A stretch of DNA of 64,000 bases, taken from Balanoglossus misakiensis (taxonomy: Eukaryota > Animalia > Hemichordata). The stretch is taken from contig CM082585.2 of NCBI GenBank assembly GCA_040954595.2, forward strand, positions 6,845,808 to 6,909,807, in the 5' to 3' direction. The position numbers were made by a program, and so were the translations under genes. Within the stretch, counting starts at the first letter, position 1. Each line of letters begins with the position of its first letter. Below are positions 11,035 through 45,089 of the stretch, piece after piece. The notes beneath the pieces were generated by a model. That model had not been told where the DNA came from. It saw nothing but the letters and a program-made list of their open reading frames with translations, and made no database searches.

Positions 11035-11292
11035 TCATGCCAAAAGTTCGGGCACTAAATGGTCCATTTTGCCGTTCCCGTGTTTCGTCGATCTGGGTTG
11101 TACGTCGAGTGCCAGTTTCGAGGAATTCTTGGAGGAACGCTGTGACTTGCGTAGGAACGACATGGAGGAGATGGAAAATGTCCTTGTCCGCATGCTGGAC
11201 TGACTGCTCAGACTTCGAGAACGTTTCGACTTGGCCTGTCCCTGTCGTAACCACGAGCGTGAAGAGCGGTTTATCATTGATTTCAAGTCGTT
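11035..11292 (-). CDS. GPCR terminal exon 4 (helix 8 and Ser/Arg-rich C-tail)
   Basis: Acceptor TTGTTTTCCACACAG|AAC in phase 0; NDLKSMINRSSRSW...VPELLA-stop continues helix 8. Confidence 0.8.
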   Translation of the reverse strand, partial: NDLKSMINRSSRSWLRQGQAKSKRSRSLSSQSSMRTRTFSISSMSFLRKSQRSSKNSSKLALDVQPRSTKHGNGKMDHLVPELLA

Positions 11293-14200
11293 CTGTGTGG
11301 AAAACAATCAAAGTACATACAATCACTGTAGCCATATAGATACATGTAATTATAATGTGATTTTTGTACTACGAAACATTCAGTTGGTGAACATTTCTGA
11401 TTCACTAAACTCTACATCACCATATGCCACTTTTATCATTCAGCAGAGGCATAGAACATTGTATGCTCAAGCATGAGGATGCATACATTACAAGATATTT
11501 ATTACCCCAATATATACAAGGGTATATAAGAGGTATGCTTTCTTATGTGACATTATAAGGTGCATTCATTCGTAAACGATTTCATGAGTTAGCATAAACA
11601 TATCTGCTTTACTTGTTAGTATGGCCGTTTGTTGAGAAGCTAATTACACTGACAATTTCATAAAACTATCCAAAGCAGAACAAAAAGCCGGAGCTAATAC
11701 ATGTGGAAACATACTGTTCAGAATAGCCAGCATTTGGTTTACTGGGGTTTTAACTTTACTCATACACTGGAAACTGCTGAGGGTCGCCGCAGACCATGGG
11801 GGGGGGGGGGGGGGGGGAACGTACCCTGAAACCCTCGTTGAAGAAACCATAGATGAACGGATTGACGAAGCTGTGAGCCATGGCAATCCACAGAATGATG
11901 CAGTTCGCCACTCGCATCTTATCCTGGTATTCGATCTCGGTGTACAGCCATGGATAGGCGATGGTGACGAACTTGAAGACGTGCACCGGTAGCCAACAGA
12001 TGGCAAACATGGCGACAATTATAACCAGCATCTTGATCACCTAATGTAGACCGTAAACAAATTGTGAGTCGTTTAATACAAGTGTTAATTATTGAAAGAT
12101 TTAGGAAACCAAAATAGACAATTCTTAAATGATCCAAAGCAAATCATATGTATACTTTTCAAACACTGAATTTTCTGAAATGCGGTCATTTAGCTGTCGG
12201 CAGGCAGAATGTTCCTATAAACTCATTGCATTGATTTCGTGCCAATCATACGCACAACGTTAGCATGTGGTCCAGCTTCCCTTCGATGAAATGTATTTGT
12301 TTCCTATATACCAGCTGGGAGTTTTAGTGGGTACATCCCGAGGAAAAAAAAAGGAAAGGTGGCATATTATGTAGAATGGGCGTATTTAACTTGCCTGTGC
12401 CAGTTTCCTTGGAAACGTACATTTTATTTGACCTAATGTGGCCTTTTCGTGCTCAGGTCGTGTTTGCTGAAGGGATTCATGCCTGTTACCTGGACTGGTT
12501 TTTTTCAAAGCCACATTTCTCATCAGGCCAACATGGGAATGCCCATAAGCATATATTCCTATTGAGGTTACGTACTTTATCAACAAGCAAATTATACGGT
12601 AGATGGTTTTGATGTTTGTTTCACCAAATTATTTTTGAAGTACGAGATAAACAAACACGTCTAAAATTGAGAAATTGTGTCAGCCTTGGCACATTTTTTC
12701 AAAATGAGCACACACGTGTTTACACAATGTTCAAGTTCACTGGATTCTTTGTGGTACGAAAGATGATATTTGAACATGTGATATGTCCTGTGGTGATACC
12801 TTTACGTGAGTCACGGGTGGCTAGTACATCCAACCGTGTGCACTCCACGATCACAGAGAGCCTTTATTTTCACAAATGTCCCATTTATTGGACAGAAATA
12901 TCAGCTATTGTCGAGGAATAACGTTTAGTCGATGTGTTTAGATTTGCGCTCTGCTGCCACCATTTGCCAAGAACGCAAAAATACCATAAAAGAACCGTTG
13001 TATTTCTAGTTCATGTTTTATGCAGAGATCATTTGGGTTCCTGCTCAGATCTGGTGTTGGGCTAGGGTCATTCCTAATAGACTGGACTGAAATTAATAAC
13101 CATACAGCAAGCGCTATACTACATAATAGTATCACTGATAAGAAGTATTTCAAGCATGTATGCCTTTAATCAGGAATTACTTTGAATGTAATCAGGATAA
13201 TGATTTTGCACACTACATAAAATGTTCGCCAAGTTTTTGAGTAGATTTTAAATAGCAATTCCACCGTAAAAAAAATACTGACTTTTACACACACCAGAGA
13301 ATAAGCAGTAACGAAGCCAATCTGTGAGATTCTTTGAAATATATATGTCTTTTAAAAATATGATCAGGAAAGCCAGTGAAATTTATTCTGCTTGCCGGCT
13401 CATTATAATAATGACCGCCTCTGAGTGATATGTGACCCAAACTTATAACGATCCCCTGAAATTGATTGTTCAAATTAAGTCACCCATACCTTTTTCTTTG
13501 CCCTGGTTTGACTCTGATCTCTGTTCGTGTCGGCGTTACCGGGTATGGTTCTCCCCCAAAGGCGAACACCGATGCGCAGATAGGTGAAGCACAGTATAAA
13601 GAGAGGTGTGGTGTATGTGACCATGATGAAGAAGATCTCGTAGGCTTTGGCGAACTGGAAGTTTGGAAAGCCCTCGCTGCAGAAGTATATGTACCTGCCG
13701 TCGTAGTACACCTCGTCCACCCGGGTGAAGATGGTCTGGATGGTCGCCAGGGAGATGGCAATCACCCAGATGCAGACGAAGACGACTTTGCCCCGGTTTT
13801 TGGTGACCCGGACTGTGAGTGGGTATATCACGGCGAAGTAGCGATCAATCCCGACCGCTGTCAGTGTGCAGATACTAACGATGACAGACACCTGCAAGGG
13901 AAAGAATCGTGAATTACACTTCAAAAAAAAAAACCCTGAGTATTTTTAACTTATGACGCAGATGCTCACAGAAAAATAGACAGAACTGTCTATCAGATCA
14001 GATGTGACGTAGGGCCGCTTACGTTAATGGAAGTAAACGCATGTCAAATATAAGTCAGGTTTTTGAAAATTCCAAGATTATTACGAAAGATGAAGGCCCG
14101 CCGCCGCGGTAAAAAAGCGGAAAGATCAGAAGGAATTTATTTTTTCTGACATGTGACTCTTAGTAGTACTTTAAACCCCTTGTTAGTCTTGTGTCTTGAG

Positions 14201-17200
14201 ATTAAACTACCGCGCTCTTATTACGTTTCTGCCTTTTGGGCTATTAGCGAAGTTTTCTAAAGTCCGGGTGTATCTCCAATCGTTGGATTAGTTTTTTTTT
14301 TAGTTGCACATCCTGGCTTATGTTTGTCCTCTATTGTGCCCACATCCACACACGTCAAAAAAATAGCACGCCCTCATACCAGCATAATGGTTCATTCCTG
14401 GTAACAAAGCTGTTTTCAGTCTATTGTCAAGATTTTATTATCAGAAAGTAGTTTCAACCATATTTATTCTGGAATGTTGAATGATAGTATTAATCGACAA
14501 GGTCACTGAATATAACAATATACCGATACAGTTTTATGAATGTTGATAAGAAATCTAATTATTTAATCTGTGTACGTCTGTAGGATACCTTTTAAGTTCA
14601 CTGTGTACCAGACAAGACATATGCCGTGGGTCGACAAATAACTTGTTGTCGCGTGATACCGGAAATTGCATTCGCCGGATTGCTGTATCACGAGTTTGAT
14701 CTGTCGGCACCCATATGAAGTCTGGCGTTCAAACCAACAATTTGCTGGGCAGTTACGTAAATCGCTTAAAAAGTGACAGCTAAATTGAAACCCATTATGG
14801 TGTTCAGCGAGGTAATGCTACGAGTGCACCAGTCCTGCTCAAATTAAAACACGGTGACTAATATCCAGCGAGGTATACGAGTCATTTTTAAAGGTCAGAT
14901 TCGCTTGAACAAACGACAAATATTGACTTTTAGCAAAGCAAACTCTTGCTAGAGAGCCGCCGGTTTGGAAGTCGCTTCAAGCACACACACGTATATATGT
15001 ACACACCACATCATGGTTCAAATTGAAAGGACAGCTATGATCAACGTCACATGGGTCACCAGCTTAAATGGCATCTGTTGCAAGTCAACATGACTTTGAT
15101 TTGCTACTAAAAGTCATCCTCCCCAGGCGACTTTATTTTCCAGCTTATTAAACCAAGTGTATATTGTACCAGGATTTCTTTCGACAGTCATTGCCGTTGA
15201 TGTTGCATTGATTTACTTTGGCAATCAAAACTGTTTGTTTTGTTGACTGTCGTGTTTTCATGTTCCTTCGAGTGGAATGTGGACCACATCGCGGTTGAAT
15301 ACGCAAATGACATAAAAGGTGTTTAGAACTTCAAGTGCAGGTCGCTTGAATAGCAGCAGACAAAGTTTAGTGCGAAGACGTCATGTATAATCTTGTATCT
15401 GAAAAACCAGAATGTAACAAACCTGTTTGGAGTCAAACACCCAGGTTGAAATAACAGACTTAAACCTTCGTCATCGGTCTTTCAAGCATATAATCACTGC
15501 CTGTAGAACTACATTAAATATGTTCAAACGTAGACAGAGTCGGGGAAGGACGATATTGTCTGCCCAGACAGCGAAACTATCAACCGAAGCGGAAAAAAGG
15601 CGGAACAGATCGGCTGCTTTGAAGTGGATTGAATTCGAGGTTTCTGGTTACTGTTTCATAAGTTTGTTTTTCCTACATATAGAAATAATGCATGTGCCGC
15701 GCATCCGAACTACTCATGCATACACCACTCAAATTTACACGATACATTAAAGGTATACAGTCACCTCCAATTTACATACGCCCATATATGGCTGAAATGG
15801 CATATTTGAGTGTTCTAAAGAACTTATGGTGGCACTCTTTTTTTCACGTGTGCCATCCACTGAAAATCTGTGATTGGCTAGATCTCAATTTGCCATGGTA
15901 ACTCTAGCTAATTTTCCGCAGGTGACCCTATACCTTTAAGTATCAGCTGTTATGATCTATTTTCTGCCTTTAGTGAAGGCATGCATGGGTGACGTTTCAA
16001 CTTCAGAAAGATGAATTGATTTCCGTGATGAATATCTTAATGGAAATATAACACATGCCTCGAGTAAATAGTCTATGTCAACAGAGACTTTCTCGGAAAA
16101 AGCATGTCGAGACTATCCCTATTAGAAAGGTTCCCCCTAAGCACCATAATGAAACTTTTTTAGCTTGAAAGCCTATTCGAAAGGTCAACGCTTACTTGAC
16201 ATTTTCTTATGTAAACAGACTTACCGGAATATTTCATACGATTAGAACCCGAGACAGATCTGTAGCTAGTTCACGTAGCCAGTCACTTAGGATTTGTGAC
16301 ATAGTGAGTATAAAGCAAATTGAACTACATGTATGTTATTATAATTATGAGCGGGCGTCATCACATGTACGTTCCCAGTTTTAATAAACAGACACATGTA
16401 CTAGATGCTGCCATACCAAACATCCAAAGGGTTTTACAATGAACGTCCGGAACTCCGGATATAAAAAAAGCTTGAAATTATGAGAGTAGCAACTTCATAT
16501 GTTTAATACATGTATTTCTCACAGACTGGGCATGGGCATTTATGGGGTAATTGTAAAGTTGTACTGAACTGTGATTTATCAGGTTTGATATATAGTTAGG
16601 ACAAGTTTACGACTTGTCATGCCATGATTTCGCTTAAAGTTATATTTTTTATGATTCTTGCGTGTTGAAGGATGTCAGTGATTTGACGAATGTCTGTTCG
16701 CGTCGTGACCGACATCCCGCTGCTAAATTCGTGCTCATCGCAGTTAGAGCGAGTTCAAATGAAGGACTTTGTCACAAATTAGACATTTGCTCTCTGAAAT
16801 TTTTTAGTTAATCTCAAGGGAGTTGAAATCACTCTGGCATTTTGCTGTCAGGTTTACAATTCAGGGTACAGCAACATTTGGGGTGACCCACTTTAACTCT
16901 TTGAATGCAACGTTTATAACTTGGACATGTCCTCAGTCACAATTTGAGAAAAAATTATTGGGATTTATTTTGGACAGATGACGACAAGTTGACTAAGGCG
17001 TTGAAAGGCTTAATAACAAATAATTAAATTGACGTTTAAATAAATGTTTGTAATCTGTGAAACCTTTGCAATTCATAAATTTATTGACAGAGTTCGTGGG
17101 GGATTTTATCGTGCACATGTATCTGCCACGCACACGCCTACCTCAATTAACGTTTAGTATCGAACCGATGTAAGAAAGAGGATTTAGTGCCAAGAGCAAT

Positions 17201-20200
17201 GACGCGGTATAAGGAACATGTTGGTTGATCAGTACCGACGGGGACACTATACCACCTTAACCTTCCTTCTGCCCTTGTTAAGAAAAACAAATCTGACACA
17301 GTCACTGATGGGAGATGTGTTGTTTTCTGGAAATGAAACATCAGGTTGTCAACTTAATTCACAGTGAAAGGGATTTCTAATGACCCATTAAGCTTCTGCT
17401 GCGTGTGAAATCTGTTGACTGTTTCGACGGGAAGTGAGCACCTTCCGACTGCTATGACTTTTATCGCATAATGTTGACAGGTGAACGGAAACGCTTCATC
17501 TGAGATTTGAGAAGTCGTTGTGTGTACAAAAGCAGGTGCCCTAATTGATTACTTATCTGCCGAGAAATCTGAAGTAGACAATGTAAGATAATCGTATGGA
17601 ATTTAATGCGAGCAGTGTTAGAGAGCTTATTTCTTGTACACACGTGGTTGTATTTGACGGTTGTGATTGCTATTCCAGCTGTCCTCTCCTGACTATATTC
17701 TGCATCCGTACATCGGGTAAAGGAATTTGGAAGAAAAAGTGGGGCGTGAAACTAGTCACTTGTAAAAAATGATTCGTTATTGATGATATATCGCTTTCCG
17801 TTTTCAAATGGTAGCTCAGCGCTTGCTATAAAAAGAGATATTGACAAAGAATCACTACGACTGGTCGATAAGTGTCAGTTGCAGTTCCCGATGAAAGAAA
17901 CTGGGTTTCCATCTTTCCCACACGGAAAGGAACGTACATGTCAGTTGGCATATACATGTAACTTAAGTCAGCAAGTTCACCTCGAGGTTAATTTGTAAAA
18001 ATGGCCAGCACGTTAATAATGCGCACTGCAAAATAGTACCGCGTTTCATTTGTAGTTCTTCGAGCGCATAAATTTTGTAAGAAATCCAGATGTGCGAAGT
18101 ACAGCTTTCCTCATTTAAATTACCGTCAAATTCTCTGCGGTCGCCTGATGGGTTATTTTTAGTGGGAAAGTGAATCGCTTAAACGAGTAAGGAGATAAAT
18201 CAAAGAGAACGCAGGTGTTGCACCCAAAGAAAAACTAACCATCCATGGAGCTAGGGTCTGTGTGATCGCAAATAATAATTTCCACGTGGAAATGATGCCT
18301 GTAACCCATAAAGCAAAAGTCACAATGGTGCAGGAATGAGTTGAGTGTTCTGTGAATAACTGTCATTCAAAATTTGTTTTGTGTTAATGGGACTTACCAC
18401 ACACTGTCTCATTGGGATTGCGTTCAGAAATCTAACATAACAACTTCAGGTGCCCGTGACCAACAGTTTATATTAGCACATCTATTATGTTGTACCTTTC
18501 ATGTTAACTTAATGAAGTTAGTTTTAAATATTTAACGTCTCTTTTGTTACACAACCAGTTGGCTTGTTACTTTTGGAATGATCAGACGATAGATAAACTT
18601 GAGTCCATCATTCTAGACAAATGTACAGTTGCAGTGACTTAATCATCTTAGGATGCTAGCAACCTTTAATAGCCTTTCAAAACCTCATGCAGCACCACTT
18701 AGCAAGAGTTTAATGCCAAGTTTATGCTACTTTACATCTGTGGTTTGACTCTGCGCCGAAGTATTAGGAGGGCCGAAGAGCCCTTTAGGCTACATTGCTG
18801 TAAAATGATAACGTTCTTACTCGGCGCAAATGAGGCGTTAGTGTACGTTGCCATGGTCACATCGATGGCTGTTGAGAGCACTTAGACAAGCGAGGGCGCC
18901 GGCCCGGAGCCGTGGCGATCAGTGGACCATCCCAAACACAACAATTATGCCACTTAATTGAGCCTAATCCACATTTGAACATGGCAGCCAGCTCATGATG
19001 AACGTGAAGTACCATCTCAATATGCTGTGTGTGGTCGGCTCAGAGCTATAATAGCAAACTATAAGACAGTACACCAACTATTGAAACTTCTTTCGTTTTC
19101 TGTTAAAAAGTTGTACATGTAATTGGAAAAAGGGCACCTGTAGATCTCAGTTCCCAATTATCAAAAAGAAATTATCCACTACACACCTAAGGGCAGATGC
19201 ATTCATACCATGATAGGGTTGCACAGTAATAACCCGAGCGAGACCAAGGTTATCTCTTACTTTACAATTAATGAGGGCTCTGGTAACCAAACCTGGATGA
19301 CTGTGCTGAAAGGCATCTGTTGATAATTAGTCTGACGAGCATATTTCTGTTCCTGATCATGACAATGACACAGTTACATATTGATAACATACAGCAGCCT
19401 AATGTGGTACCTAATGGTGAGTCTGTCTGTCTTTGGCATATAGGTATATGTCAGTTAGAGCAAAGAAGAGATTTGAAATGTAATCTCAGGACTAGGGAGG
19501 GATTATCACAAATCATCGAGAATTCAGAGATGCCTCCAAATATCTCTTTAGGAGCAGCAAAAAGTCATTGTTTGCAGCAACACTTACTGTGTGCTTTCGT
19601 TTTTACCCACTAGTATCTAATGAACTCCAAAACGTAACACTCGATCTTGAGAGGCACGTGTTGTGCTATGCCATTTGGCAAAAAACTTCCATACTAAGGT
19701 GTCCAGGCTATCGACGAAATTCTTGTAGACTCGGGAATGACATTTCGTAACTTCACCTAAAATAACTTTTACGTTTTAGGCCGTAACGTGAAGTGTTCAA
19801 ACATTAGAAGAGAATACTGCAGTTGTCAAACTCATATAGGGGTAAAAAAAAAGTTGTTTGTCTGACAACCTTGGAAGCATTAGAGCTTTAAAATTGTCAG
19901 GTGTGAAATGGTCGACCAAGCTGTTTAGGGTACGAAACACGCGAGAAGACTTAACAGTGGATTTCATTTATACAATAAGCACCGGATTTGTTAAGTCGTG
20001 TGACAAACTTACCCTGCTAAAGTAGCATAAAGCCTGCTTTTCGACAGCAGCCAAAAATACCTTATGACGTCTTTGCAAAAGAAAAGAAAATACCAAAGGC
20101 AACTTCGGGAGGTTCTAATATCTTGATATTGATTCAAAAGTCATGGCTCTATGCACCTGGTTGCCATACATAGTCGTCATGGCAACGGTATCGTGATCTT

Positions 20201-26200: not shown

Positions 26201-27644
26201 CTAGATTTTGCCATGATGAAGTGAATGTGCCTTGGCCTGGAGCTTTAAAGGTACATGTACATTGTATACGGTCACCTCTATTTTACATATGCCTATATAT
26301 GGTCAAAAGGGCATGGCTAAGTGCTCAAATGACTATGTGGTGGCACACTTTTTTTTCATGTGTCCACCCACTGTAAAGCTGTGATTGGTGATATTTTGCA
26401 TAGCGGAATGTATACCTTTAAGTGAGATGCTGATCGTTGATGTGACATATATAAGGTGAAAAGTTAACACACTGGCCAGAAACAATATTGCGTGGACAAG
26501 GTGCCTTCTCAACAGTAGACATCTAAAAGCAATTTGCTGAACTGACGTTTCGCTGATTGAAAATGTTATCACATTTCCAGTCAAACGTAACTTATTTAGT
26601 ATCGCATTGCTTTACATCACCAAAGAACGTAAAGGAATACAGACATCTCTGATTGATATATATACATGTTTGGCTGAAGGGTATGTCTAACTCTCAGTTT
26701 TCTAATGACTATGTGTTGGTGTTATTTTTCGCATGGATGCCCAGTGAAAATCAGTGGCTGGCTAGATTCAACTTTCCATGGTAACTATGGCTAAATTTGA
26801 CTGAACCGGTATACCTTTTAATCAAGATCTTGGTTGAAAGGGGTGTCAGGAAGGTTCCAAGCCGAAAGCAATTACATTAATGGTCCACAGCGTTTCAGAG
26901 TGCGTAATTATATACTCTATTTTCCTGTGGTTCTGTATCGGGTAGCCAGACACATCCACACATCTTTTTCTGAAAATGATGTATAGTCAGCACCCAGCAA
27001 AACATATGTTCGTGAGCAATACATTTATCAGTTGAAATACATCAGCCATTAAAAATCATGGAAAATTAAATAATGCAGGTTTTGTATAACAAATGACAAA
27101 ATGTAAAATCATTTTCTGGCATTGAAAAATTAATTTTTTTTTGTATACCCCGGTAGATGAGTTTTAAAGTATAAATTCTATGACTCCAATAATACCGCCT
27201 TTAGCACTTTTCTTTGGACAGCTGCTGAAAAAAGAAGACTGCTTTCATTTCGACTTGTTCTTTCGACACGGACATCTCCAGTTTGGCCAATTGTGTACGG
27301 CTTACCTGCTGGAGGAAAATGACCGTGGGACACATCACCCTGCCGAATATCCAGTGACCCAGCATGATTGTCGGGAAGGTGAAGGGCATGCAGAAAACGG
27401 CGATCAACAAATCGGCCACGGCCAGGTTCACCAGGAAGGCCCTCAACTCGCACCGCGTCGCTTTCCCATTGATGAGCACGCAGAGCACGATGATGTTGCC
27501 GCTGATGGACAGCACCATGTTGAACGTGAAAGTGCAGATGAGCGTTACTTGGCTCTCGTAGGAGAACGCCAGGTCGTAGTAATCCCCGGAGAAGTTTGTT
27601 CCGTTGGGCGGCGAGTCGAAGAGAGAATATTCGTGCCCTTCCAT
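11035..27644 (-). CDS. Same neuropeptide GPCR, isoform B using proximal exon 1B, 404 aa
   Basis: Join of 27644-27306, 13891-13490, 12040-11825 and 11292-11035. The junction ...CPTVIFLQQ|VSVIVSICTLTAVGIDRY restores the canonical C3.25-R3.50 spacing of TM3. Confidence 0.9.
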
Positions 27645-30600
27645 AGCGAGCCCTCGTATGCGTGTGGTTCAGGTGTGTCGGTTACGTACGTCCCTCTGAC
27701 GTTACGTGTTCACTGTTTATGCACTGGCAAGAAACTATACTAGAAGTGAATAAGCCGTCATTTCCTTTATATTGCTCACTTAAGTCACGTGATACTTTAA
27801 ACAGGAAAACCAACATGTTTGACAGACAGGCATCAGTGCAAACCTTTCTCTGCTTTTAAGCTACTATAATACCGTTTTCTTGTCTGTTGAGAACCCAGCT
27901 GTCGGAAATCTGCCCCTGATTGCCATTTGTTCCATATTGTATACATGTATTTAGTGCCTGGCAGTCTCCTTACGTCACATGACTCGAAAATGGGTTTTAG
28001 TCCACAAAATGTTTCGACGGTGGAAAGGTCCTTATAGTAGTGACGAAAATAAAATTGACACAAAACATTCTTGTTGAATGGTTAATTGTGACAATTACAC
28101 ACACGTCTCCACATTGAGAAACGCCTACTTAATTAAGAAATGAATATTTCATCCCCAATTAGGGGCGCGTGATCTGAGACAAGTCAATCAGTGACCTGTC
28201 GGCATGCGTTTGCCATACTTGGCTAAGTGTTTAATGGGGCAAAGTCATTCTCCTTTTTGCAGTGTTTTGTGCATGACTATAGATTATTCTGCTCCATTGA
28301 TCTGAAAATGTCTGCTCATGTCCTGTGTATTTTATCTTTTTAATATTTCAAGAATATAATTTTGGAATTTACCAGAATTTATTCACTTGACATATATGTA
28401 TATTTAAACAGCAGGAATGCAATGCCAGTCAAGTCACTAGGATTCAATCAGCGAAACCACATAATTAACTTCAAGGCATGATAAAAATAATTAATTTAAG
28501 GTTACTCATAAAATAAGGCAATGTATGGATGAGGGATGGGTTTTCCCAAGTGCTATGTTATTATTTGCTAAACCGTAACGTTTTATTTTTTCATTCTGTA
28601 TGAGGTGGGTACTTCATTAGTGTGTGCTTAATTATTAGCAGTTGCGAGGATGAACCAGTCATTGTTCCACGTTTAAATGTTGTTTTGCCGATTTTATACC
28701 TGGTGAAATTTCCTCGAGGTACATGTATGCTTATTACAGTCAATATCCATGTGACGCGTGCGTGAGGAGCCCTTTTAAAACTCTATGGTGATACAGATAC
28801 AAAATTGCCTTCTGTTTCAATCCCTTTCGATCTAACTGGAATTTCGATTTTTGTGAAATCGTTCAAAGTGAATTTGAACCGAAAATCACGCCTGCAGTGT
28901 TTTTTGATGGATTTGCATCCGACGCATCGATATCGGAATGTTTCATTACCGGGGAATGGCAGGGCTATTAATGGGAATTTTCTGGCTTTGGCTTGAATGA
29001 GACAAATCTGATAATAACCCCCTGGAGTCACCCTGTTTGCAAGTGACACCTGATAAGCGCTTTGCGTGTCACAGTTTCTTACGTCATTCTGCCTATTTGT
29101 GAATCATGCTCACATATAGGAAATCCAAGACTTAAGATTTTGCCGCTGATTTCCCGGAAATATATTGATCATAGACATTTCTTGTTTTTCTCAAAAGACA
29201 GGAATATCAAACCGGCGGATGAAGTAATGGCACTTGTGTAGGTTAAATGCTTAAGCTTATGGCGGCAAAGAAGGCTTTAATTTGTACACAGATTCCGTAG
29301 TTGTGTTCTTCAGTTTCTGTGTGGCTGGAGCTGTATAATTGACGATGTAATTACTGCTTTTAACGATCTTGCCAATAAATCTTGATCTCATCTTCAAAGG
29401 TTAAACACAACATCCGTTTCAACCATGACATAAATCTGACATAGCTCGAATTAGCTCTTCAAATGCAGGTTAGGTTAGGGACGTATGAAATTCCATTATC
29501 CTCTCAAATCCGAAATACCATCCTCTTAAATCGCATCTTTACTTGACATCAGAGGACATCACATGGCATGAGACCTACGTATTTTGGGTGTTTTTTTTCA
29601 TGTCTTCATGCATACAGTGTATCACAACTTATACCTACGCTACAGGTAGTTGGCCTTGTGAAGGCAAACCTGAACAAAAGTGTTGGTTTTAAGCTGTTTC
29701 CCACTGAAGATACATTATAGCTTTCGTATGTTCGGTATGTTAATTTGTTTCACGATGTGATTCAATGGATGTGGGTGTACGCTAGTTGCTCAGTTATTCC
29801 TTGCATGGAAAAGTCTACCACGCTGTATACGTGCAGGACTGTTTTAAGTTTCACCACACGACACGATCATCATGCCCGCAAGAAGCTATTATAACTCTAC
29901 TCCCAACGTTGCCACTGAAACTTGTTTTCGCACATAACTGTCAGTATTAACATAAGCGCTATGAGCTTAGACCCTGTTCTGTTGACAACAGTCAGCCACC
30001 AGCAGGGACTGTCGAGTTGTCTATTGTCACTTTATCCTACAGAAGAACTGAGAAGTTCTTGCGGCATGGTGAAATGTTCAACATTTCATGAAAATATTTC
30101 CTGTTATATGATGCAACAGCTACTTTTGCTTTCGCTATGTGTTCTTCAGGGACAAGCTTAATGTGTTTTCCTTTCCTTTTATGCGTAAAAAGGTATGCAT
30201 GACTTCGAGTATTCTGAAAACATTAAAGGAAATATTCGATTTTTTCTCTCCAATAGAAGCTAAATGTTGAAATTGAAAACAGGATGTCAGGTCATGTTTT
30301 CTGTTCTATTCTTTAACCTGAACACCTGCACACATGGACTCCAAGTTCTATAATTATTGTTTGCACGGTATCGCTTCCCCCTTGGAATTTTTTCCTTTAT
30401 ATCCTGAAGAGACCCAAAGCGACGTATTCTATACGTTACTTAATATAATGGAGGACTATTTAGACGACTGCAAAGTTCACTCAGTAACAGTTATCTTCTT
30501 TTGGCAAATGTAGTAATGTCATGTATGCATAGTATCTTTCTGTACTCAATAAGAATTTGTTCCAGTTTGAACTTTCAAAAAGGTTTGGAATCAGAGTGTG

Positions 30601-33600: not shown

Positions 33601-36600
33601 ACTACTGAAGCAAGTAAGCAAAAGCTCCACTCGCTTCTCTTTTCAATGTGCCTTATGATTTACTTTCTGCTGTCATGGGCAAAATCGGTGCAATGAAGCT
33701 AAGCGATCCATGAACCGATGTCTTTGCCTTTATTTATAAAGCATGAAAGATCCTCTTTGCTCATTGAATTTCTTTTTTTTAAAGAAATAACCGAGTCAGA
33801 AATGCGAGTTAAGTAGCATGATTAGTAAGCCAAAGGCGGAATACAAACTGACAGAATGATCCTTTCCAAGAAAGGCGTTTGCCTTTAGCCTCTCACAAAT
33901 TTCTGGCGTGATCCAGTGAATGTTACACTTCTAAAATCATAGATGGTGAAAACTTGAGGTACGTGTCAGCTGCTCACGATCGGAAAGGGCAGCTTAAAAT
34001 GTCATCATCTTGACATTTTGTCATTAACAGTCGGGTTGTACTTTTCCTCTATGACTTTTTTAACTTATAACTTTTGCTTAAGATTGACCTTTCTTTCATT
34101 TTCATTTCCAGTTAATACAGAGTGTATTTTGTAGGCAATATTTATGAAGTCATTCTGGGGTTACAGTAGTACTTTATTTTAACTGAAGTTAACAGCGAGA
34201 GAGAGGGGGGGGCTAGTACTGAGCCAGTCGCAGGAATTACCCTTCAACCTAAGGTCATCCTGGATACATTGCGAGTTCTGACTTTGAACAAGTCAAAATT
34301 TGGTCACAAGAGGGCGCTCTCAGTCTATGCAATATCTCCCCCCCCCCCCTTCACTATTTATCAAAATGCTGTTGATGACATTTTCTCACTTGTGACATAT
34401 AGTTGTGTAGGGAATTATTTGACTTAAATTGTCAGTATTTCAGGCCGTGGGTTAAGAGTTGGTCACGTGTAGCCAGAATAAAGAAATTCCACTTTTGACA
34501 ATCCAGATCATAATATCACTGGAAGCCATTTTGCAGTCATACAGTAGTTAAAACAGCACACATGCGTCAGAGTCTCTTGTGATGTTCAAGTTCTTGCGAA
34601 CAATCCCGCGTGATGTCGTTAGCGAAAAAGGGGTCATCAGTTAACAACAGGCGCCAGTCAGTCTAACAACGTAAAACGACGTTTAAATGTTACTTTTTTT
34701 GCAAATGAACGTCCATACGCTTTTTGTTTCATGTTCCTGTGTTTTTGCCACATGATATGCTACCAAAAATCAAAATTGTAATGGAGGTCCCTGTAAAAAC
34801 AATGGTGACTTCCTCCGGTATGTGGGGATGTTTGAGTTAGATGTGTTTAACTGGTGGATTGTAACTCAAGAAAGAAGTGAAATTTAATGATCACACTGGG
34901 ACATGTTATCAACCCTTATTAGCAAAGATCTGCATTCAGAGGCTTGTAAATGTATCGCGGCTATATCTGCAATGAAGACTTATGCTACAATAGTACAATA
35001 CAAAGGCAATTTCTGCAATGAAGACATAGACGCAGTGTCATTACTAGAAAATTGACGTAATGCCTAAACGCTTGCCTCTGGAGGATAAAGCAAGACTTGT
35101 TAAAAATAAAATCTGGTTGAGTTCGATCCCCCCTGGGCGCAAAATCATGTTAGACGAAGACTCTTTCCCAAGAGCTTAGAAAGTAAATTTGTTAATGCAG
35201 TGCCAGCAGATTGGGGAATTTAAACTGCATATACACGCGTTTGAGTTCAAACGAAACTGTTCATGATTGCACCATCTGAATGTAAATTATTCGTCAACGT
35301 ACACGCCGCCGTGGGTTGTTCCATTTGTGCAATCCTGAGCCATGAAGACCCGTACAATTTTTTTTGCTTTCAGTTTCACTCACGATCGCTTCTTTGATCT
35401 TCTGCATCCATAAAGATCTGCCGTCCCCGGGACAATCTTTCAGACAGCGAATATTCTGTCCATTGATCTGTTGTTGCAGGGCGCCATTAGTTATAAATTT
35501 GGTATTCATATTGCTTTTTAGCTGAAGTTTGGTCGACTGTAAAGTTCTAATCTGACATTTGTATCGATGGTTAAAATCTTTCAGCATTCTTAAGTAATTG
35601 GCTCAATGTCCGAATATACATTTGCAATTGCATTTCATTATTCATAAATATATCAAATAGGCTAGACGGGTCAGTTAAGAAGGCCTTTCCAAAGTGGAAA
35701 CATGTCGGTTTGGTTGTCTCATCTTGCTTCGCTGTTTATTCTTTTCATCAATTAATATGTGATAGTTTTGTTTCTAACTCGTAACTATTCGCGTTTGACA
35801 TGATATATCATGTTATTAACTCTGTTAATATTGATTCTATGAACTTGCATTCCAACGTCAACAGTAGTTGGGTTGTTCTTGGTTCGTTACTAATTTGCCG
35901 ATAACATGAATCTACATCTTGTTATTAACTTGTGTATTGATTCTTTAACCTTGTAATCAGACATCAACTTTAGTTGATCTTGCATTAGGCTATTGGGGCT
36001 CAATCCTTCTAAATGCAAGTCTTAACTCTTTATTGAAAAGTAATGTTTTACATTCCCATATAAACTAGGTACTTATACTTTCAGTGAAAGCTTATATTAT
36101 AACACGAGGAATCTTAGTGTTATCATTGACATGGGATTAAAATTTTGTAAACATGTGAGTAGCAGAATTGATGGTGCGAGAAATTTAAAGCCGGATTTAT
36201 CAATGAGGAATAGCCAAGGTATTAAGTGTAGAAAGAAAAATACTAAATGTAAAACGAAGTTGACAGCACAAAACGAAACATCCAGGGATAATTTCTTATA
36301 TAAAAGCTTGTTTTTTAATGAGATATTAGGTTCTACAAAGTAATATCAGCTCAAGGACTTAAATTCTTTTTAATGATATATTAGGGGTTAAGTTTTAAAG
36401 CGATATCCAATTTTCACTTATCATTATCCAAACGTAAGTATCAGATACCCATGTTGAAAATTTGTGGTTTGTGGGCATTGACTGGAAATATGGCTTTGAA
36501 ATAAAAGCATGCTGTTGCCACACAGTGCCGTGGTGCGTACGTCCTGAGCATGATTTGAAAATTGGAAATTGATTGAAATTTTGTTGAAATGAACATGGTG

Positions 36601-39600
36601 TTTAGAAGGGTTATTTTAGATTTCAATATTCAACATATGGTGTGGATGAGGGACGCACGCAGTCCCCATCTCCAGGTTTTTGTTCAACAGCAAGAATCAA
36701 GTATGTGTCTTCCGCGCGTGCAGTCAGCTAAGATTGAAAAAACTTGTGATGAAAATACACAACTGTCAGTTCACATATCAGAAATAATGTTGAGTATGTC
36801 TTTTATATTGCTTGCTTCCTTTGCTAAGCGACTGGTGCCATTGGGTTATGGGTTGGAATCCTAGATATCAATGTATAACTCACAATCAAAGAGAGATTAT
36901 TATTAGTTGCACATCGAAATTTCAATTAATTTCAGTGTCATTTATGATCAACATTAAGGCATTTTAGAAAGGTTGATTAAATACAAGCTCTTGGGAATAT
37001 ATGCGCGAAATATATAACGACGTATGAGCCACCACAGTACAAGCACTGGCCTACTTCATACTCTACCTAAGAAAGTGCAGTACGCACCAAGCTATATATT
37101 CCCCTGAGCTTTGTTCCATTGACATTTACCTTCCATTGTTCCTTAAAGGATAAAACTGACATCAGGGAATAAGGTTATTTGATTGCCTTTTCATCTGCTG
37201 CGGTGTCATACCAAAGATTTAGCTTGACTTGAATGTTCCATTTTGCTATATCAAAATACATAATGCACACTACATGTATCTCAGGATATTTCAAACATTG
37301 ACCATGTACCTTAGTGAATATGAATCTCAACCACTGGTATTTATATTTAGATATATACTATCTCAGTAAGCATTTTCATATCCAAATAACGCATGTACTA
37401 AGTAAATTTAGCCAATATCTCCAGTTCGATGTCAAAGCATTTCAATACATGTTGAATTCTACGTTATTTTGTAAGAACTAAAAGACAAAGTTAAAAATGA
37501 ACAGAAGACAGTCAGCTGCTTGTCTGCTGGACTTAAACCATACCAATATACTAACTCATAGAGACTCTGTCCAACCAGTAAGAGTAACTTAACAGCCTTT
37601 GCATCGTTCAAGAAATTGGATTACTACTGTAGCATGAAATTGATCCAAACATCGCCTTGTATTTTTGTAATGCAATTCATCAATTAATGGAATACAAACT
37701 TTGTGTTTGTAATGACAGTATAATCAGAGGGACCCATCTCTTGATACACATAGCCTACCCATTTAGCGACAGTGTTTTGTTTGAGCCTGGCGTCTCGCTG
37801 TGTCCTCGTTATCTTAAGAAATATGCTGAATTGCAAAGGTGAATATGGCTCAGTGAACATTGTTATTTGTTTCCATCACAAGGAGAATGTACTGTGTGTT
37901 CGTAATTTCCCAACAGAACCTAAACACTGATTGCAAGGTGCTTTCCTTTTCCGTAATTACAGGAGAATTTAAATGGTATTTAAGAAATAGCTCTTTCGTT
38001 ATTTGCAAGAGGTTGTAGTTTGTGATCTTTGAAGCTTTTGTTTGACTTAGTCTCCTATGGGAAGAGGCAGAGAATTGTATGTCACCAATCTACATGCTGG
38101 CGGCGCTCAACGTGTCACCATGGAAACAACGCGCTCAACCAGGAGTCTGCAGGGAACAATTTGATGTTTTTTTGTATGTGAAAGCCTACGAATCAACAAC
38201 TTCTACTGAGAACTACCGTTGTTCTCTTACAAGCTGTAATCCAGGCTTCTTGAAGGAAACAAAAAGAATTAATGATTGTTGAGAGCTGTATAACAAAACC
38301 TCTGGCCTGTGGATTACTGTGTCAGTGATGATTTTCATAAATGCGAGAAAACGAAAACCCACGGCAACAGCAATGCCAAGAGTAGGCGGAATTATTTTAT
38401 AAGGACACTACGACCTTAATATCCCATGAAATTAGTGCTGATGAATATTTTCAACACGTACAAACCACGGGATTAGTATCACTTTTATGTGATTTGAGAT
38501 TTATTGCTGGCGTGTGATTAATCCTTTTTCATTCACAAATCTTGGGAAAGAAAACGGTATGTTATTTTGCAGAGATGCCAAATCTCATGTCAATGCTTTT
38601 CTTTACTCAATTATTTCAGATGTCTTATCCTGAAAATTGCATATCAAGGGGAATTACTGCGGCTTATAAGTTAACTGGAAAGTAATTTCTCTTTTGAAAA
38701 TAGTTTGAAAAGATAAAAATCATGAAATAATCCTTCACACATCAAATTCCTACAAGTGTGTGCAACACTGTGTATCTGCCGTAGTGTGACGCATCATTAT
38801 AGATTTAGCACAAACATACATGTATACATTGTGGAAAGTGTTAATATGAATTGTTTCGCTTATTTTCAGCGTCACAAGAAAGTATGTGGGTTTGCGCAAA
38901 ACATGAGTATAGTGCTCAATTACAAATTGCACTCATTGGCTCACTTTTGCGATGTGACGCCCAAATGATTTCTTTGTACTCGTATTTCAAATACATGTGA
39001 CTTTCCCCTGACGACTAATGCACCAAAAGAAATGTTATCCGCGCTTGACGCCACCAACGGTTGCATAATTGTGCCTCCGAAGAGCTGACATTTCAGTAGA
39101 ATGCCATTGAGAAGTTGAAAAGAGTTTCATTTCATCGAAGGCACTGAGGCGAACTCCTAAGGTCAAAATCATTCTGAAATTAAGGCGCTATATGCCCACA
39201 CCTATTGATAACCGATTGTCGTCTCATTTTGTTAGCCGTGGGCAAAAATGGAAATAATCTTCGTGATGCACGATTTCTATTATTTATTACGCAAAACTTG
39301 TTTTTTTCAAAGCAATTTCCGTTGTTGTTTTTGCAAGAAAAGTTCTACCCTCCAAAGCTTCATTAGCTGCTTCGACAACCATTTTCTACAAGTCTTTCTT
39401 ACTCGTGCGATGTTTCTTGACCGAGAAGATACATCAAAAATCCCACAGCCCAGAGCAACTATCCTCCACCCACAGCCGCGGTGTACTTCAAACAGAATTA
39501 CTCAAACTGTTGGCGGCACTTCATAAAAGCCAAAATCTGAAGAATTTTTATCGTGATATTTTCCTTCCACGTTTTAACACTGCTGCGAGTGTCGCTACAA

Positions 39601-42600
39601 TTTGTTTTGAAACGAGAGCGTTCGTCGGGGCTTTTACAAACAGATGATGCAGACACACCGTATGTCTGAATACACGGCACATTCAGATTAGGCATACCTC
39701 TGAAAATGGCCACGTCTCTCAGTTGTAAAACGCTCGTGGGCTACTGTTTCTTTTTCACTAGCAAGAAAGGTATAGTTAAAGTTTACAAACAGGTTGACTG
39801 TCACTGTATCTGGGACTTTTCCCGCTGTTCATCGCGACATTCTGTAACATTCGTAAATGTACAAAAAATGCTTCAGGATGTAGCATGTGTATGCTTGGAA
39901 CAAGATATGTCTGGAGGTCGGTCTGTGAAGATAAGTGTACTTCAAACATCTTCATTCAGTAAATTGAAGTATGTAGCTCTACGGTACTCACAGAGATACG
40001 GACAATGGTTAAAGGGGCAGGTGTAAAGTTTGATAATTGATGATGCTTGCCCAACCCTATTCTAATATTCTTCAGACGAGATACTGACGTTAACATATGA
40101 CATGATTTACTTGAAGGTTCAATTGTTCTTTCTGCTCACTTTTGGGGGTTTGAAACACTTCCTGGTGACTGGAGACATCAATAATAATTATGTGACAATG
40201 GCAAAAACTTCTCATTTCAGGAGCGTACTTGATGGTTGAGAAACAAAAATCGAGTTAAGTATGGCCCCTTTGATTTTTGGACACTAGATAGCGTTTTGCA
40301 TCAATAAAACAGCCGATTTAAATTGACGAACAGAAATGCGAGACAGAACACTGCTAACAATCACGTCAGCTTTAAATCAGTATCTGTAAAAGAATCCTCA
40401 TATCTGGAGTAGTAATTATTGACATATACTCATTTCTATAAGAGGTTATAAAATGCTAACCAATTTGGCTGATGAATATTAAGTTTCACGAATATGGCAC
40501 GCAGTGATATAGTTTAGCTCTGAACAGTTTAACCAAGATGTTTTATCTGCACCTGCCCACACTGTTGAAAGAATGTATCGCCTCCATAACCTGTCAACGC
40601 TATTCAAAAGACATTTCATAGGAAGAGAGAAGACAACTGGATTAGTCATGACGTAGCTAATACGGTACCTTATGGTTATGATGGAAACATCGTAGATGGA
40701 TATAAGTATAATCTCTGAAGCTCAAGTTGTTCAGAGTGACTTTGCTCTTTGAGACTCTTTGTTTGGAGAAGATGTAGTCATGGACACAGGCATTATAATC
40801 GGCCTCAGCTAAATGGGTCTGGCTCCAGTTCATCATGACGTGACACATCTAACCCTTTCAATGCCATCGTCAAATTGTCGTCATTTTCACAAAATAAACC
40901 TAGCTTAACTTTTCCCATATTTTTTTTCTAAAATTTTGATCAAGACCTGCAGAGAATAGAAAATAATGTCCATTTGGTCCAAAATTAAAGGGAAAATGGG
41001 GGGAAAATGTTTGAAAATTATAAAAATGTTGCAACACATTTTGGCGTTCAATCAAAAGGTTATCACTTATACATATACATGAAGGGTGTTCAGTCTGGTG
41101 AAAACTACTATACAAGGAAACGACGAAGAAAATGTTAAAGGTTTAACAAATTAAATGAGGAGAACTCTATTCTTCCATCCCGGGCATCACCTGTTGTTAA
41201 GACGTCACTAGCCCGGCATAGTGACACCAACATGCATTATAAGTGCAAATTTAGTTTTAAAATGATTGAGTTGACACTGCCTCCGTCTTAATGCACGCAT
41301 TATCGAAGCAGTGATGTGAAACTTACTGTCTCGTTACCTTGTGAAAGAACAACGCCACAAGATAGTGTTGTTATCATGCAAGACACGTGCAAATACATTG
41401 TAAACACCCACTTTGTTTCAGAAATGGACTAATGTACTCATACAGTTACGCCGTATGAAGTTAGTGTTTCCTGAAATTCACTGTGTCGTAAACCAGAGTT
41501 GTAAATTCCCTAAAGCAACTTAAGCACGTCTAGCAAATAAGCCATGATAATGCATTATAAAGAAGAATATGAAAATTTAAGTGTTGCAAAGCCCCTGCAA
41601 GGGTGTGCCAATAATCACAATAAATCGATATCGACATCTGGGAATATCTTGAAAATTGAGCCATTACAGTGTTTTTACAACTGGAGTTGATTGGCATCGT
41701 ATAAATCGGTTCGTAGTGTTCTCAAATCCTCGGGTATCCCATGAGAACACTGTCGCTATTTTCATTAGTAAACTGCCTGATCTCCTTAGCTTTTCTCGTT
41801 GTGTAGAGCGAAAGCCCCTCTTAATTGGGGTCGTGGTTCCTGTTGTGACTTGCCGACAAGAGCCCCGGACAGAGATAACGATCACTGATCAGGGTTTTGC
41901 TATAGTAGAATTAAACTCTGCAATGATTTTCGGTTTATTAATTTATTCGGAAACCATGACGTTGTGGGCAGCGAGGGAGGTCGTAATGACCCTATAAACC
42001 TGCCAGTTAAGAGTTTCATCTTGGGACTTGGGCGGAATTTGTGGGGCAGAAACAGTGTACTGACACTTGCATTATTCACGTTTTGTCGGAAAACTGTATC
42101 ATGGCACTGGGAGAATTTTTCTTTAGATGTTTCAATCATCTCGCAGACTGCTTGTGCTGCATGTCACCTGGTAACATCCCATCAGAACTTATCCCTTCAG
42201 TAAGCCAGTCAGAGAATATCCTTTGCAAACACGCAAAAATATCAAAAGAAAGTTAGCATGATTGTCACATTACACGCGGATCTTTGGAACGGTTTAACAC
42301 CGTATTTTAATACTTCTAAATCGCCTCCGCTTGAGTATACAAATCATCAGCCAAGTCTTTCCACACATTTAAAAAGAGGGTTTACTGAGTTTAATTCCCT
42401 GCAATCATGAGCGAGCGTACGTGTTTCGCTTTAAGACGTGATGAAATGGTGGCTTCCCATCCTATGATGTTTATAGAAGTGATTGTACTTATCAGTGCAC
42501 TGCAAACGCTATTGGCAGAGAATGCGATGATTTAGCGTGGAATCGATATTATACTTTTCAATTGCAGGGCGCGTCATATCGACCCTTTTAATTGAAATGC

Positions 42601-44939
42601 CAAAGCACTATCCCCAGTCCCGTGGGTATTACCACTTAAGTTTATTCACTAAACCTGTTTTCAAAGTAGTTCAGTCACCCACGATGTTGTCGCTTGGGCG
42701 ACTTTCAGTGTACCAGCATTTTGAGATCAGAAGTTACACACATTGGTATCCATTCCATGTTTCAAATTAATCGGACATGATCCTTGAATAATGTTTATTG
42801 TTTGCCATCATCATCAAGAAGGTCTGTTTTGGGATGAATGGGGAAACACAAATGTTAATGCTATAACGAATAAGATCGTAGCCTTTGCGTAAAAGTTTTG
42901 ATCATAAACATGAACGCTGATAATGATCAAATACTTTTTTTGATTTTATAAAGCAAGCATATTAGTGCAGTCCGGTTCGGTTGACAACATTGGTGCCATT
43001 CTTCTTTGTGGAGATGTTCACGTAGCAAGTCACCCAATCACCCTTGAGGAAATTTACAGCAGGCAAAACAGCAACATCATCTCGAGAAGTCCGGCGTGTT
43101 ACACTATAGTGCTTCTAATCTAGTCGGAATAACGATGAACCACGTACACATTGCGCATTAAAACACACACAATCAATTTTTCACGTAGATAGATTTCATC
43201 GGTTTTGTCAGACAATTTTGAATATTGATACAGCTTCCACAGTGCATACGAGACTAATCAGGGCCAGTAGAAGTCTGCATCAATTTACGACCACTTTGCC
43301 CTCAAGGATTGAAAAACAGTATTATACTGTGGGCGTATGCGAACACATACATTTTCTGTAATCTGCGTAGATCTGTGTACCTGCAGATGTCATCGCTGAC
43401 AAATAAACCTGTCTCCTTTCATCATGAGTCGTTATGTGCTTCAGGTTGGAATGTTCATCCCCCCCAAAATTCCTTTGTAGAATTCACTTACCGTTACATC
43501 CGTAATAAAATCCGTGATAATAATTATCCCCATCAAAACAAAGACCGACAATGAAACCCTACAGTGTATATATATTCTTGGAAAGATCCAAGTTTGGTAA
43601 ACTCAATAATGAAGTTTCATTTCACGTAACTACGGTAGAAGTCATAAAAGTTTTATTCAACACTCCCTGGGGAAATACTGAAATATTTCTGATTGGTATT
43701 TGCTACCGATCTTATAAGCACTCTATAACTGTCAGCAATTTTTCTGTCTTAATTTGGTTTTTGAAATATATATTATCCGAGTCAATATAATCATCCAATA
43801 TTAGTCTGAGAGAATTAGTCATTTAAAGCGAGCTATACTTATAAAAGAACCGCATATCTTTTCGTGGTTTGTAACACATTGATTTAAAACAATTTGATGG
43901 TTGTATAGTAATTTAGCTTTAGGCACTGCCTTAATCCCATCCAACGCAAGTGAGATTAGCATCAATGTCTGATTACTAGTATCAAAATTTCATGGTGATG
44001 ACTCATTATCCGTTGTGAATGAATATTCATGCATCTTGGATCGTGCCTTGCATACTTTGGTTTGTGGATTTATCACTGGGCGCACATACACTAGCTTGTT
44101 AGCTGTCAAGTAACGATTATTCATTTCAATTGAGCGTGTCTAGTTTAATACACTACAAATTGCACTGCAATCTGAAGTTGCTATTATCGTAATGCAATTT
44201 ACAAGACAACACAGCGTATTCTTATAGCCACAATTCATTTTACTGTTCCGGAATTGCTGCTATCATCTTTATGCGTATAATAATATCCATTCTGTTTACG
44301 TTTGAAAATGGGCAAACGTTTGAGATCAATTTGTTGCTGACTACGGGGTAGTCCTTTGTCATGTGGTGTAGCTTCTTATGTACTTTCTCGGCTAGTCTGG
44401 GTTTGTGCGTTTACATTGCGTGTATTATTTTCGTCGTCAAAAGTACAGTAGACAAAGTAAAGCCCTTGCAAGCTGTTTCTTAACCTTTGTAAATGACTTT
44501 TGATTGAAATCAAACAATGACAACCAGACTGTGTGTTACACGCATCACTTTAAAATTCAAAAAGTATATGTCCTGCTATGTGCATTCAGAGCCTTACGTG
44601 CCAAACTCTTCTCACCTGTTGCAGAAAGATGACCGTCGGGCACATCTTTGCGCCGAATATCCAGTGTCCCAGCAGTATGGTAGGAAATGTGAACGGCATG
44701 CAGAAGACGGCCATCAGCAAGTCGGCACACGCCAGGTTGATGAGGAAAGCGTTGAGGTAAGTCGCCGAGGAGTAATGAGAGATCAGCACGCACAGAACGA
44801 TCACATTCCCCGTGACTGACATGAGCATGTTGAGGCAGAAGGCGGTGACCAGCACCATCCTGCTGTCGTACGGCAGAGCAAGGTCGTAGTATTCGTAGTC
44901 TACTTCGGAGGAGTTGGTGCCGTTCGCAGACAAATTCAT
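11035..44939 (-). CDS. Class A neuropeptide GPCR (leucokinin / luqin-RYamide / tachykinin / GPR83-like group), isoform A using distal exon 1A, 399 aa
   Basis: Join of 44939-44616, 13891-13490, 12040-11825 and 11292-11035; all introns are GT-AG and phase 0. Seven TM segments with GN (TM1), NLAxAD (TM2), WIFG..MC, DRY, CWLP and NPFIY, plus helix 8 (FRNDLKSMI). ICL3 LWGRTIPGNADTNRD..KKKVIKML resembles leucokinin/RYamide-type receptors. The family assignment is from motif recall, not a search. Confidence 0.75.
11798..11817 (+). repeat. G20 homopolymer
   Basis: Twenty consecutive G, read as C20 in the GPCR pre-mRNA starting at intron position +8. Confidence 0.9.
11825..12040 (-). CDS. GPCR shared exon 3 (TM6, TM7)
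   Basis: Acceptor TCTACATTAG|GTG; donor AGG|GTACGT; 216 nt; CWLP and NPFIY motifs. Confidence 0.95.
13490..13891 (-). CDS. GPCR shared exon 2 (TM3 second half, TM4, ECL2, TM5, ICL3)
   Basis: Acceptor TTCTTTCCCTTGCAG|GTG; donor AAG|GTATGG; 402 nt; contains DRY and the ECL2 Cys (YFCSE). Confidence 0.95.
15747..15939. mobile_element. 185-bp MITE with TTAA TSD (family A, most intact copy)
   Basis: TTAA-AGGTATACAGTCACCT ... AGGTGACCCTATACCT-TTAA; TIRs match at 14/16; related copies at about 26245 and 26655. Confidence 0.85.
20523..20861. mobile_element. Degenerate TTAA-type MITE, about 335 bp
   Basis: Left end GGTAGTATGCGCC; right end ...ATGCTACC-TTAA. Internal blocks CAGTGACCCCTA and ATGAGAACAAT recur at about 2665 and 2770. 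The left TSD is decayed. Confidence 0.5.
22053..22564. mobile_element. Non-autonomous DNA transposon (MITE), 504 bp, TTAA TSD, Kolobok/T2-like
   Basis: TTAA (22053-22056), AGGCACGTAAGCTGCAACT ... AGTTACAGCTTACGTGCCT, TTAA (22561-22564); TIRs match at 18/19; no coding capacity. Confidence 0.9.
23690..23780 (+). mobile_element. Possible degenerate tRNA-derived SINE
   Basis: A-box-like GTGATTAGTGG and B-box-like CTCAAATCC, then TGTCCTCGGGCAAGGTAC, which resembles the TGTCCTTGGGCAAG core of many SINEs. Confidence 0.35.
24800..25125. repeat. Degenerate tandem repeat, period about 90-115 bp
   Basis: GACACTTTT.AAG.CA.ACTAATTGGTT...ACAC.GCAAGTTGGAAATATT at about 24902 and 25014; partial units at about 24801 and 25098. 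Confidence 0.65.
26245..26421. mobile_element. MITE family A, copy 2 (internally deleted, insertion in left TIR)
   Basis: TTAA-AGGTA...GGTCACCT...TGGTGGCAC...CTGTGATTGG...TATACCT-TTAA aligns with 15751-15935. Confidence 0.8.
26655..26821. mobile_element. MITE family A, copy 3 (degenerate, left end lost)
   Basis: TGAAAATC..TGGCTAGAT..CCATGGTAACT..GCTAA..TATACCTTT is colinear with the right part of copy 1. Confidence 0.65.
27306..27644 (-). CDS. GPCR alternative first coding exon 1B (N-terminus to mid-TM3, 113 codons)
   Basis: MEGHEYSLF...MCPTVIFLQQ; donor CAG|GTAAG at 27305; two N-glycosylation sequons. Confidence 0.92.
27740..27792 (-). promoter_or_regulatory. Putative core promoter of GPCR exon 1B
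   Basis: Minus-strand TATAAAGG at 27771-27764; TCACGTGA E-box at 27785-27792; 17-nt block shared with the exon 1A upstream region. Confidence 0.5.
35660..36300 (+). mobile_element. Decayed non-LTR retrotransposon (CR1/L2/Jockey-like) reverse transcriptase remnant
   Basis: Motifs in the expected order, with stops and frameshifts: KKAF (about 35680), FADNMNL (about 35895, from FADD), LNPSKCK (about 36000), RNLSVIIDMGLKFCKHV (36107-36157, from KDLGVxxDxxLxFxxHI). Confidence 0.7.
44616..44939 (-). CDS. GPCR alternative first coding exon 1A (N-terminus to mid-TM3, 108 codons)
   Basis: ACC-ATG start at 44939; MNLSANGTNSS...MCPTVIFLQQ; donor CAG|GTGAG at 44615; three N-glycosylation sequons. Confidence 0.9.
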
Positions 44940-45029: not shown

Positions 45030-45089
45030 TATAATGCTCACTAAAGCGCTTGTCAGACACCTCACTTTCTTCTGTCAGATCACGTGATC
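45030..45089 (-). promoter_or_regulatory. Putative promoter of GPCR exon 1A
   Basis: Plus-strand TATAATGCTCACTAAAG (45030-45046) matches 27768-27784 at 15/17; palindrome GATCACGTGATC at 45078-45089. Confidence 0.45.

Follow-up and report, generated by a model that had tools for sequence, protein, structure and literature searches.

A conserved acorn-worm GPCR gene with two variable first coding exons and one shared TM3-TM7 body

Results

Two first exons and a single receptor body

The stretch of Balanoglossus misakiensis DNA analysed here (hereafter the window: 64,000 nucleotides (nt) of assembly GCA_040954595.2, contig CM082585.2, positions 6,845,808 to 6,909,807 of the forward strand) carries on its reverse strand a GPCR (G protein-coupled receptor) gene in which two variable first coding exons, A and B, lie upstream of one set of three shared exons. 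Exon A (44616..44939, reverse strand; 108 codons) encodes the N-terminus, transmembrane helix (TM) 1, a first intracellular loop (ICL1) without Lys or Arg, TM2, the first extracellular loop (ECL1) and TM3 up to position 3.33, while exon B (27306..27644, reverse strand; 113 codons) encodes the same segment with the basic ICL1 that is typical of the family. Each begins with ATG, is stop-free and has a length divisible by three (324 and 339 nt), and both close on an identical TM3 codon with CAG/GT donors. The shared exons, also on the reverse strand, are every one phase 0 with AG/GT ends: exon 2 (13490..13891; 402 nt) supplies the remaining TM3 with DRY, TM4, ECL2, TM5 and ICL3; exon 3 (11825..12040; 216 nt) supplies TM6 with CWLP, ECL3, TM7 with NPxxY and the start of helix 8; and exon 4 (11035..11292; 258 nt including the stop) supplies a Ser/Arg-rich C-terminal tail that matches the tail of Ptychodera flava.

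The predicted receptors are 399 and 404 amino acids (aa) long. An earlier note on this DNA had described two complete ATG exons with a common TM3 end and phase-0 donors, all of which are present in the sequence, and first introns of 30.7 and 13.4 kb, which measure 30,724 nt (from A) and 13,414 nt (from B). Its gapless alignment of A with B from YYDLA onward was likewise reproduced, with 61/92 residues and 186/276 nt identical. Identity at codon positions 1, 2 and 3 is 63, 79 and 44 of 92; third positions are near saturation, with a synonymous divergence (dS) of about 1.4 and a nonsynonymous divergence (dN) of 0.28. The first AATAAA sites after the stop codon lie 2.0-2.7 kb downstream (window 8379-9006), which suggests a 3' untranslated region of at least 2 kb.

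Searches for further gene copies covered the 64-kb window, which is free of N. Both tblastn and blastn with exons 2-4 returned self-matches alone, leaving no remnant of a second set in the interval between A and B. Profile hidden Markov models (HMMs), built from up to 28 relatives and the window's own exons, reached at most 5.3 bits in the two long introns among the best 10 matches per profile, below the best scores of 7.4-11.8 bits in 25 Markov-simulated windows. A second exon 2-4 set or a third first exon in either long intron was ruled out by these searches, in agreement with the single TM3-TM7 set described earlier. Nested genes and transposon open reading frames (ORFs) were also discounted, as a Pfam scan of 94 long-intron ORFs of at least 62 aa gave two weak sub-cut-off matches, neither relevant. 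In intron 2, the reverse strand of window 12443-12640 weakly resembles that half of the exon 2 profile which covers TM5 and ICL3 (13.3 bits, with an internal stop; the best score from 25 simulated windows and four profiles was 11.8 bits). Its DNA likeness to exon 2 is not significant (18/300 random segments equal or higher), and it may stem from an ancient copy of part of exon 2 or from chance.

Receptor class and family

Each first exon matches profile positions 1-65 of Pfam 7tm_1, and exon 2 matches positions 67-197; A, B and exon 2 score above cut-off and the partial exon-3 query below it. The spliced products carry canonical N1.50, D2.50, C3.25, DRY, CWLP and NPxxY; the 7tm_1 match, seven helices and motifs together place them in the rhodopsin class (class A). 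The best relatives with a solved structure are orexin receptor 1 (E 6e-49), NPFF2 (3e-48), NPY2 and NK1. The QRFP, RYamide/luqin, tachykinin and leucokinin receptor families were considered as candidates for orthology; matches in PDB and Atlas are spread evenly across several peptide-receptor families, and no single orthologue stands out within the orexin/NPFF/NPY/tachykinin group. The gene likely encodes a class A peptide GPCR with a putative peptide ligand; database names are automatic and inconsistent. The ICL3 motif may resemble that of leucokinin receptors. An AlphaFold model of exon A alone gave three helices with a mean confidence score (pLDDT) of 61 and was uninformative.

The receptor is a member of an orphan lineage of invertebrates that has expanded greatly in acorn worms; amphioxus, molluscs, a brachiopod and a spider also have relatives. 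More than 20 paralogues of this lineage were retrieved from P. flava and Glandiceps, many of them on shared contigs, and a literature search found no paper on the acorn-worm expansion. Several orphan bilaterian receptor groups are noted in PMC5818035.

Counterparts in other acorn worms

Of 210 candidates in a protein search with exon 2, 12 proteins were returned; every one is from an acorn worm, and P. flava gives the best match (87%), which on its own would point to a ptychoderid other than P. flava as the probable source of the window. This best match sits in a two-member cluster comprising RefSeq XP_070538840.1 (X1) and XP_070538841.1 (X2), consecutive accessions from one P. flava gene. X1, of which residues 27-324 align to orexin receptor 1, has a B-type front (86/111 identical to exon B), X2 has an A-type front (61/70 in a local match to exon A; 62/71 over comparable residues), and the two are letter-identical from the mid-TM3 junction onward. 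The independently made assembly and annotation of this related species thus have both fronts on one identical back half, an orthologous layout with the same junction, but the automatic models are named QRFP-like and RYamide-like. RefSeq X1/X2 variants usually rest on introns observed by RNA-seq. For P. flava, RNA-seq across development is available (PMC11618098).

Saccoglossus kowalevskii XP_006817252.1 is a lone first exon, annotated as partial on a 13.5-kb contig, and is neither clearly A- nor B-type (53/71 and 57/71). It stops at exactly the A/B junction residue, and the intron after TM3 position 3.33 is therefore taken to be ancestral. Isoforms X1 and X2 of the amphioxus relative differ at the C-terminus alone, and the other multi-member clusters checked for the same layout carry no isoform labels. 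To look for fragments of transcripts, short proteins were searched with exon A; 4 of 5 candidates matched, none A-type and none from this species. No paper on this locus or on the P. flava isoforms was found in a literature search.

An old duplication under purifying selection

Over the last 71 residues of the first exons, A and P. flava A share 62 residues and B and P. flava B share 63, against 51 for A and B, and 10 columns sort by exon type with none sorting by species. Trees pair A with A across species (support 98/96) and B with B (97/88 in one tree, 88/18 in another). A clade uniting window A with window B was rejected by the approximately unbiased (AU) test (p-AU 0.004, from a tree that omitted ten rows as long branches or near-duplicates), ruling out a recent species-specific duplication. 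On the age of the duplication relative to the Ptychoderidae/Spengelidae split, the best tree places Glandiceps with B (96/87), a clade of A and B is not rejected (p-AU 0.083), and another tree leaves this node open. Ptychoderidae has Spengelidae as its sister group in the phylogeny given in PMC11175523.

Conservation of exon A between species (62/71) is on a par with that of exons 2-3 (177/206), and dN/dS for A against B is about 0.19 (bootstrap 0.05-0.36). When exon A was simulated without selection, the ATG, frame and GT were retained in 68/5000 runs at 0.35 substitutions per site and in 2/5000 at 0.7. Each variable exon thus shows purifying selection together with cross-species conservation, and the cross-species grouping of A with A and B with B, taken with a dN/dS of 0.19, indicates that the duplication is old and that both exons have been maintained.

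The fronts differ in ICL1

The main site of divergence is the segment covering the end of TM1, ICL1 and the start of TM2, at 44751..44777 (reverse strand) in A and, with three Lys/Arg, at 27441..27467 (reverse strand) in B. In TM1, A and B agree at 15/31 residues; the ICL1 region has 1/7 identical, TM2 8/11 in one half and 14/16 in the other, ECL1 7/7 and TM3 10/12. The cytoplasmic TM1-ICL1-TM2 turn holds 7 of the 10 diagnostic columns. The ICL1 region of A is identical to that of P. flava A (7/7). Lys and Arg are both missing from ICL1 in just 3 of the 182 sequences parsed, the A forms accounting for two (37/219 were not parsed). When aligned to orexin receptor 1, the loop Arg of B falls on a conserved Arg before TM2, which is replaced in A. 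Meanwhile, A and B are identical at 13/14 presumed pocket positions, taken from a generic class A list that is not receptor-specific, with numbering anchored on N1.50, D2.50 and C3.25.

Upstream regions

Tentative candidate promoter elements precede each first exon on the reverse strand. Those of A (45030..45087) comprise TCACGTGA at -148 and a 17-nt stretch, and those of B (27768..27792) comprise TCACGTGA at -148 followed by the 17-nt stretch with TATAAA; the stretch is 15/17 identical between the two, and two of the palindrome's three window copies are those at -148 of the two ATGs. The 500 nt upstream of A have a GC content of 0.48 and an observed/expected CpG ratio of 1.11, compared with 0.38 and 0.77 in the intron. 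Within 500 nt upstream of the ATG of B there is no stop-free in-frame AG, and a fused A+B ten-helix protein is excluded by this lack of an acceptor.

Neighbouring genes and repeats

An ATG3-like gene (PF03987, matched by 4/81 ORFs) lies at window 47749-50285 on the reverse strand, and its coding matches end less than 3 kb upstream of exon A. An EMP70/TM9SF gene begins at about 52.4 kb, head-to-head with the ATG3-like gene. Its region contains an 86-nt repeat at 55463-55548, 58905-58980 and 61279-61364, two copies direct and one inverted, which is perhaps a small mobile element. A tandem repeat with a 54-nt unit and 2.1 perfect copies occupies window 3551-3661.

Discussion

The locus is a real, conserved variable-first-exon GPCR gene, and its layout was already present, unremarked, in RefSeq. 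At least two homologous 5' coding exons, each with a start and a same-phase donor, stand ahead of a constant set, and the joining of each to the constant exons is present in the predicted P. flava annotation. What is new here is that A and B are alike at 13/14 presumed pocket positions yet divergent in ICL1 (1/7). We are fairly confident that two full receptors are made from separate first exons on one TM3-TM7 body. Each front is likely spliced to that body from its own promoter, splicing in this species and promoter use both being inferred from genomic sequence. The proposal of the earlier note, that one locus produces two seven-helix receptors with exchangeable N-terminus-to-TM3 modules, gains support from the P. 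flava annotation and from purifying selection.

The pair may have originated by tandem duplication of an ancestral first exon together with upstream DNA. The donor of A or B would splice to the exon 2 acceptor at 13891, and the A transcript would drop exon B inside the 30.7-kb intron, because B is without an in-frame acceptor; since the phase-0 intron after TM3 3.33 is old, either front would join exon 2 in frame. B would have retained the ancestral basic loop, whereas in A a neutral/aromatic loop would have become fixed and been kept from then on. That ICL1 diverged and was then conserved in A suggests a changed intracellular contact rather than a changed ligand. The products are predicted to share a ligand and to differ in site of production and in ICL1, with a predicted difference in coupling, and the same orphan peptide might then evoke a signal of different strength or kind in A-cells and B-cells, whether through contacts with G protein, kinase/arrestin or lipid or through delivery to the surface. 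On a more tentative level, which we regard as possible rather than probable, the duplicated front would be a signalling switch and not a ligand switch, in which ICL1 is exchanged by promoter choice while the pocket and the G-protein-binding TM5-TM6 core are kept.

Several observations weigh against this interpretation. The pocket list is generic, not measured for this receptor; the N-termini of A and B also differ, keep N-glycosylation sequons and can contact peptides. X1 and X2 of P. flava are predicted models, two other P. flava models of this receptor family have clearly faulty fronts, and X2 starts at a mid-TM1 Met, without the N-terminus and half of TM1, so that it may be an incomplete model or reflect a damaged exon in that species; the backing from P. 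flava is therefore strong yet indirect. The Glandiceps orthologue has one listed member, which is B-like, and an A-type protein of Glandiceps was not found among the retrieved relatives. Local alignment shows no significant likeness between the A and B upstream regions (control windows scoring equal or higher: 147 and 223 of 500), and their shared 7-mers are borderline (254/5000). Finally, acceptor-like AGs with a pyrimidine content like that of real acceptors occur at -182 of A and at -90/-79 of B, and a non-coding upstream exon is therefore possible.

These AGs, and the weak support for the promoter motifs, speak for an arrangement in which a shared non-coding first exon precedes A and B, both internal and mutually exclusive, or in which transcripts of the ATG3-like gene on the same strand, whose coding matches run down to 47749, read through into A; the choice between fronts would then be made by splicing. 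This is unlikely, given that the last ATG3 match lies less than 3 kb from exon A, with CpG-rich sequence near A, that the same palindrome stands at -148 of both ATGs, and that human N-terminal tandem-exon swaps arise from alternative promoters (PMC8373072). It is very unlikely that exon A is not joined to exon 2 at all and instead, transcribed alone, yields a short three-helix modulator by reading on to a stop that lies ten codons inside the intron, or is a slowly decaying orphan exon. The intron after A has an AATAAA at 43657, some 960 nt in, and the first 1 kb after B has none; this would suit such a product, as would the 5' truncation of P. flava X2, and truncated GPCR variants are a known class (PMC3477067), but the exact phase-0 end is kept in both species, the P. 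flava annotation joins A to exon 2, and neither conservation nor dN/dS allows for decay after the two species split. Also highly improbable are two complete tandem paralogues with the second exon 2-4 set lost or collapsed in the assembly, or with the body of A elsewhere. The family is rich in paralogues, and in P. flava and Glandiceps single chromosome-scale contigs carry several of them, but the window has neither an N gap nor a remnant, the assembly of a second species has the same layout with one identical back half, and a collapse would require two nearly identical bodies although the first exons next to them are saturated at synonymous sites.

If two receptors are indeed made from separate first exons on one body, the nearest published class A GPCR case is the insect ecdysis-triggering-hormone receptor (ETHR-A/ETHR-B), in which a single neuropeptide GPCR gene has alternative 3' exons that encode the end of TM4 to the C-terminus (PMC8175484), giving full receptors of different sensitivity in mutually exclusive neurons (PMC8175484, PMC8291126). 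Both systems are single class A neuropeptide GPCR genes whose alternative exons hold several TM helices, but they are mirror images: ETHR shares its front and swaps its back, whereas here the TM1-TM3 front is swapped and the presumed pocket is unchanged. An ETHR-type arrangement with alternative 3' TM exons does not apply, as the 3' exons here are single and the 5' exon is doubled, and because the front is what is swapped, promoter control is possible.

Insect Gr/Or chemoreceptors are ion channels unrelated to rhodopsin-class GPCRs. Among them, Drosophila Gr39a has several large first exons that arose by tandem duplication and have donors only; each is spliced to the same small 3' exons, with purifying selection on each variable exon, and Gr23a, Gr28b, Or46a and Or69a are further examples (PMC2204066); the variable exons there hold six of seven helices and here three. 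In humans, N-terminal tandem-exon substitutions with a duplicated 5' coding exon and an alternative promoter make up 39/236 catalogued events, and the same layout is seen in the protocadherin and UGT clusters, CLDN10, CLDN18 and ASIC1/2 (PMC8373072). All 236 rows of supplementary sheet 1 of that catalogue contain no rhodopsin-class GPCR, judged by gene symbols. TMEM87A/B are present as seven-helix proteins of another family with internal events. The variable exons of claudins and ASICs include TM helices. The protocadherin and UGT precedent drawn in the earlier note fits, but a TM-helix swap is less novel than that note supposed, given ETHR-A/B (3' end) and Gr39a (first exons). A literature search, with subscription journals mostly outside it and absence therefore unproven, found no publication that describes duplicated first exons for TM1-TM3 in a class A GPCR, and a precedent among opsins was likewise not found.

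The reach of the finding is limited, as this species is not among the main models and the receptor is an orphan. If both forms are made, selection would have preserved in at least two acorn-worm species a natural experiment in domain swapping: two receptors that are identical from mid-TM3 and at nearly all presumed pocket residues, and whose differences lie for the most part in ICL1, TM1 and the N-terminus. ICL1 is less studied than ICL2 and ICL3, and its contribution to coupling and trafficking would here be isolated. Furthermore, the front-exon swap contrasts with the whole-gene duplication that otherwise expands this receptor family in the same genomes, and would, given that both forms are made, add to gene duplication and tail splicing a third way of diversifying GPCRs.

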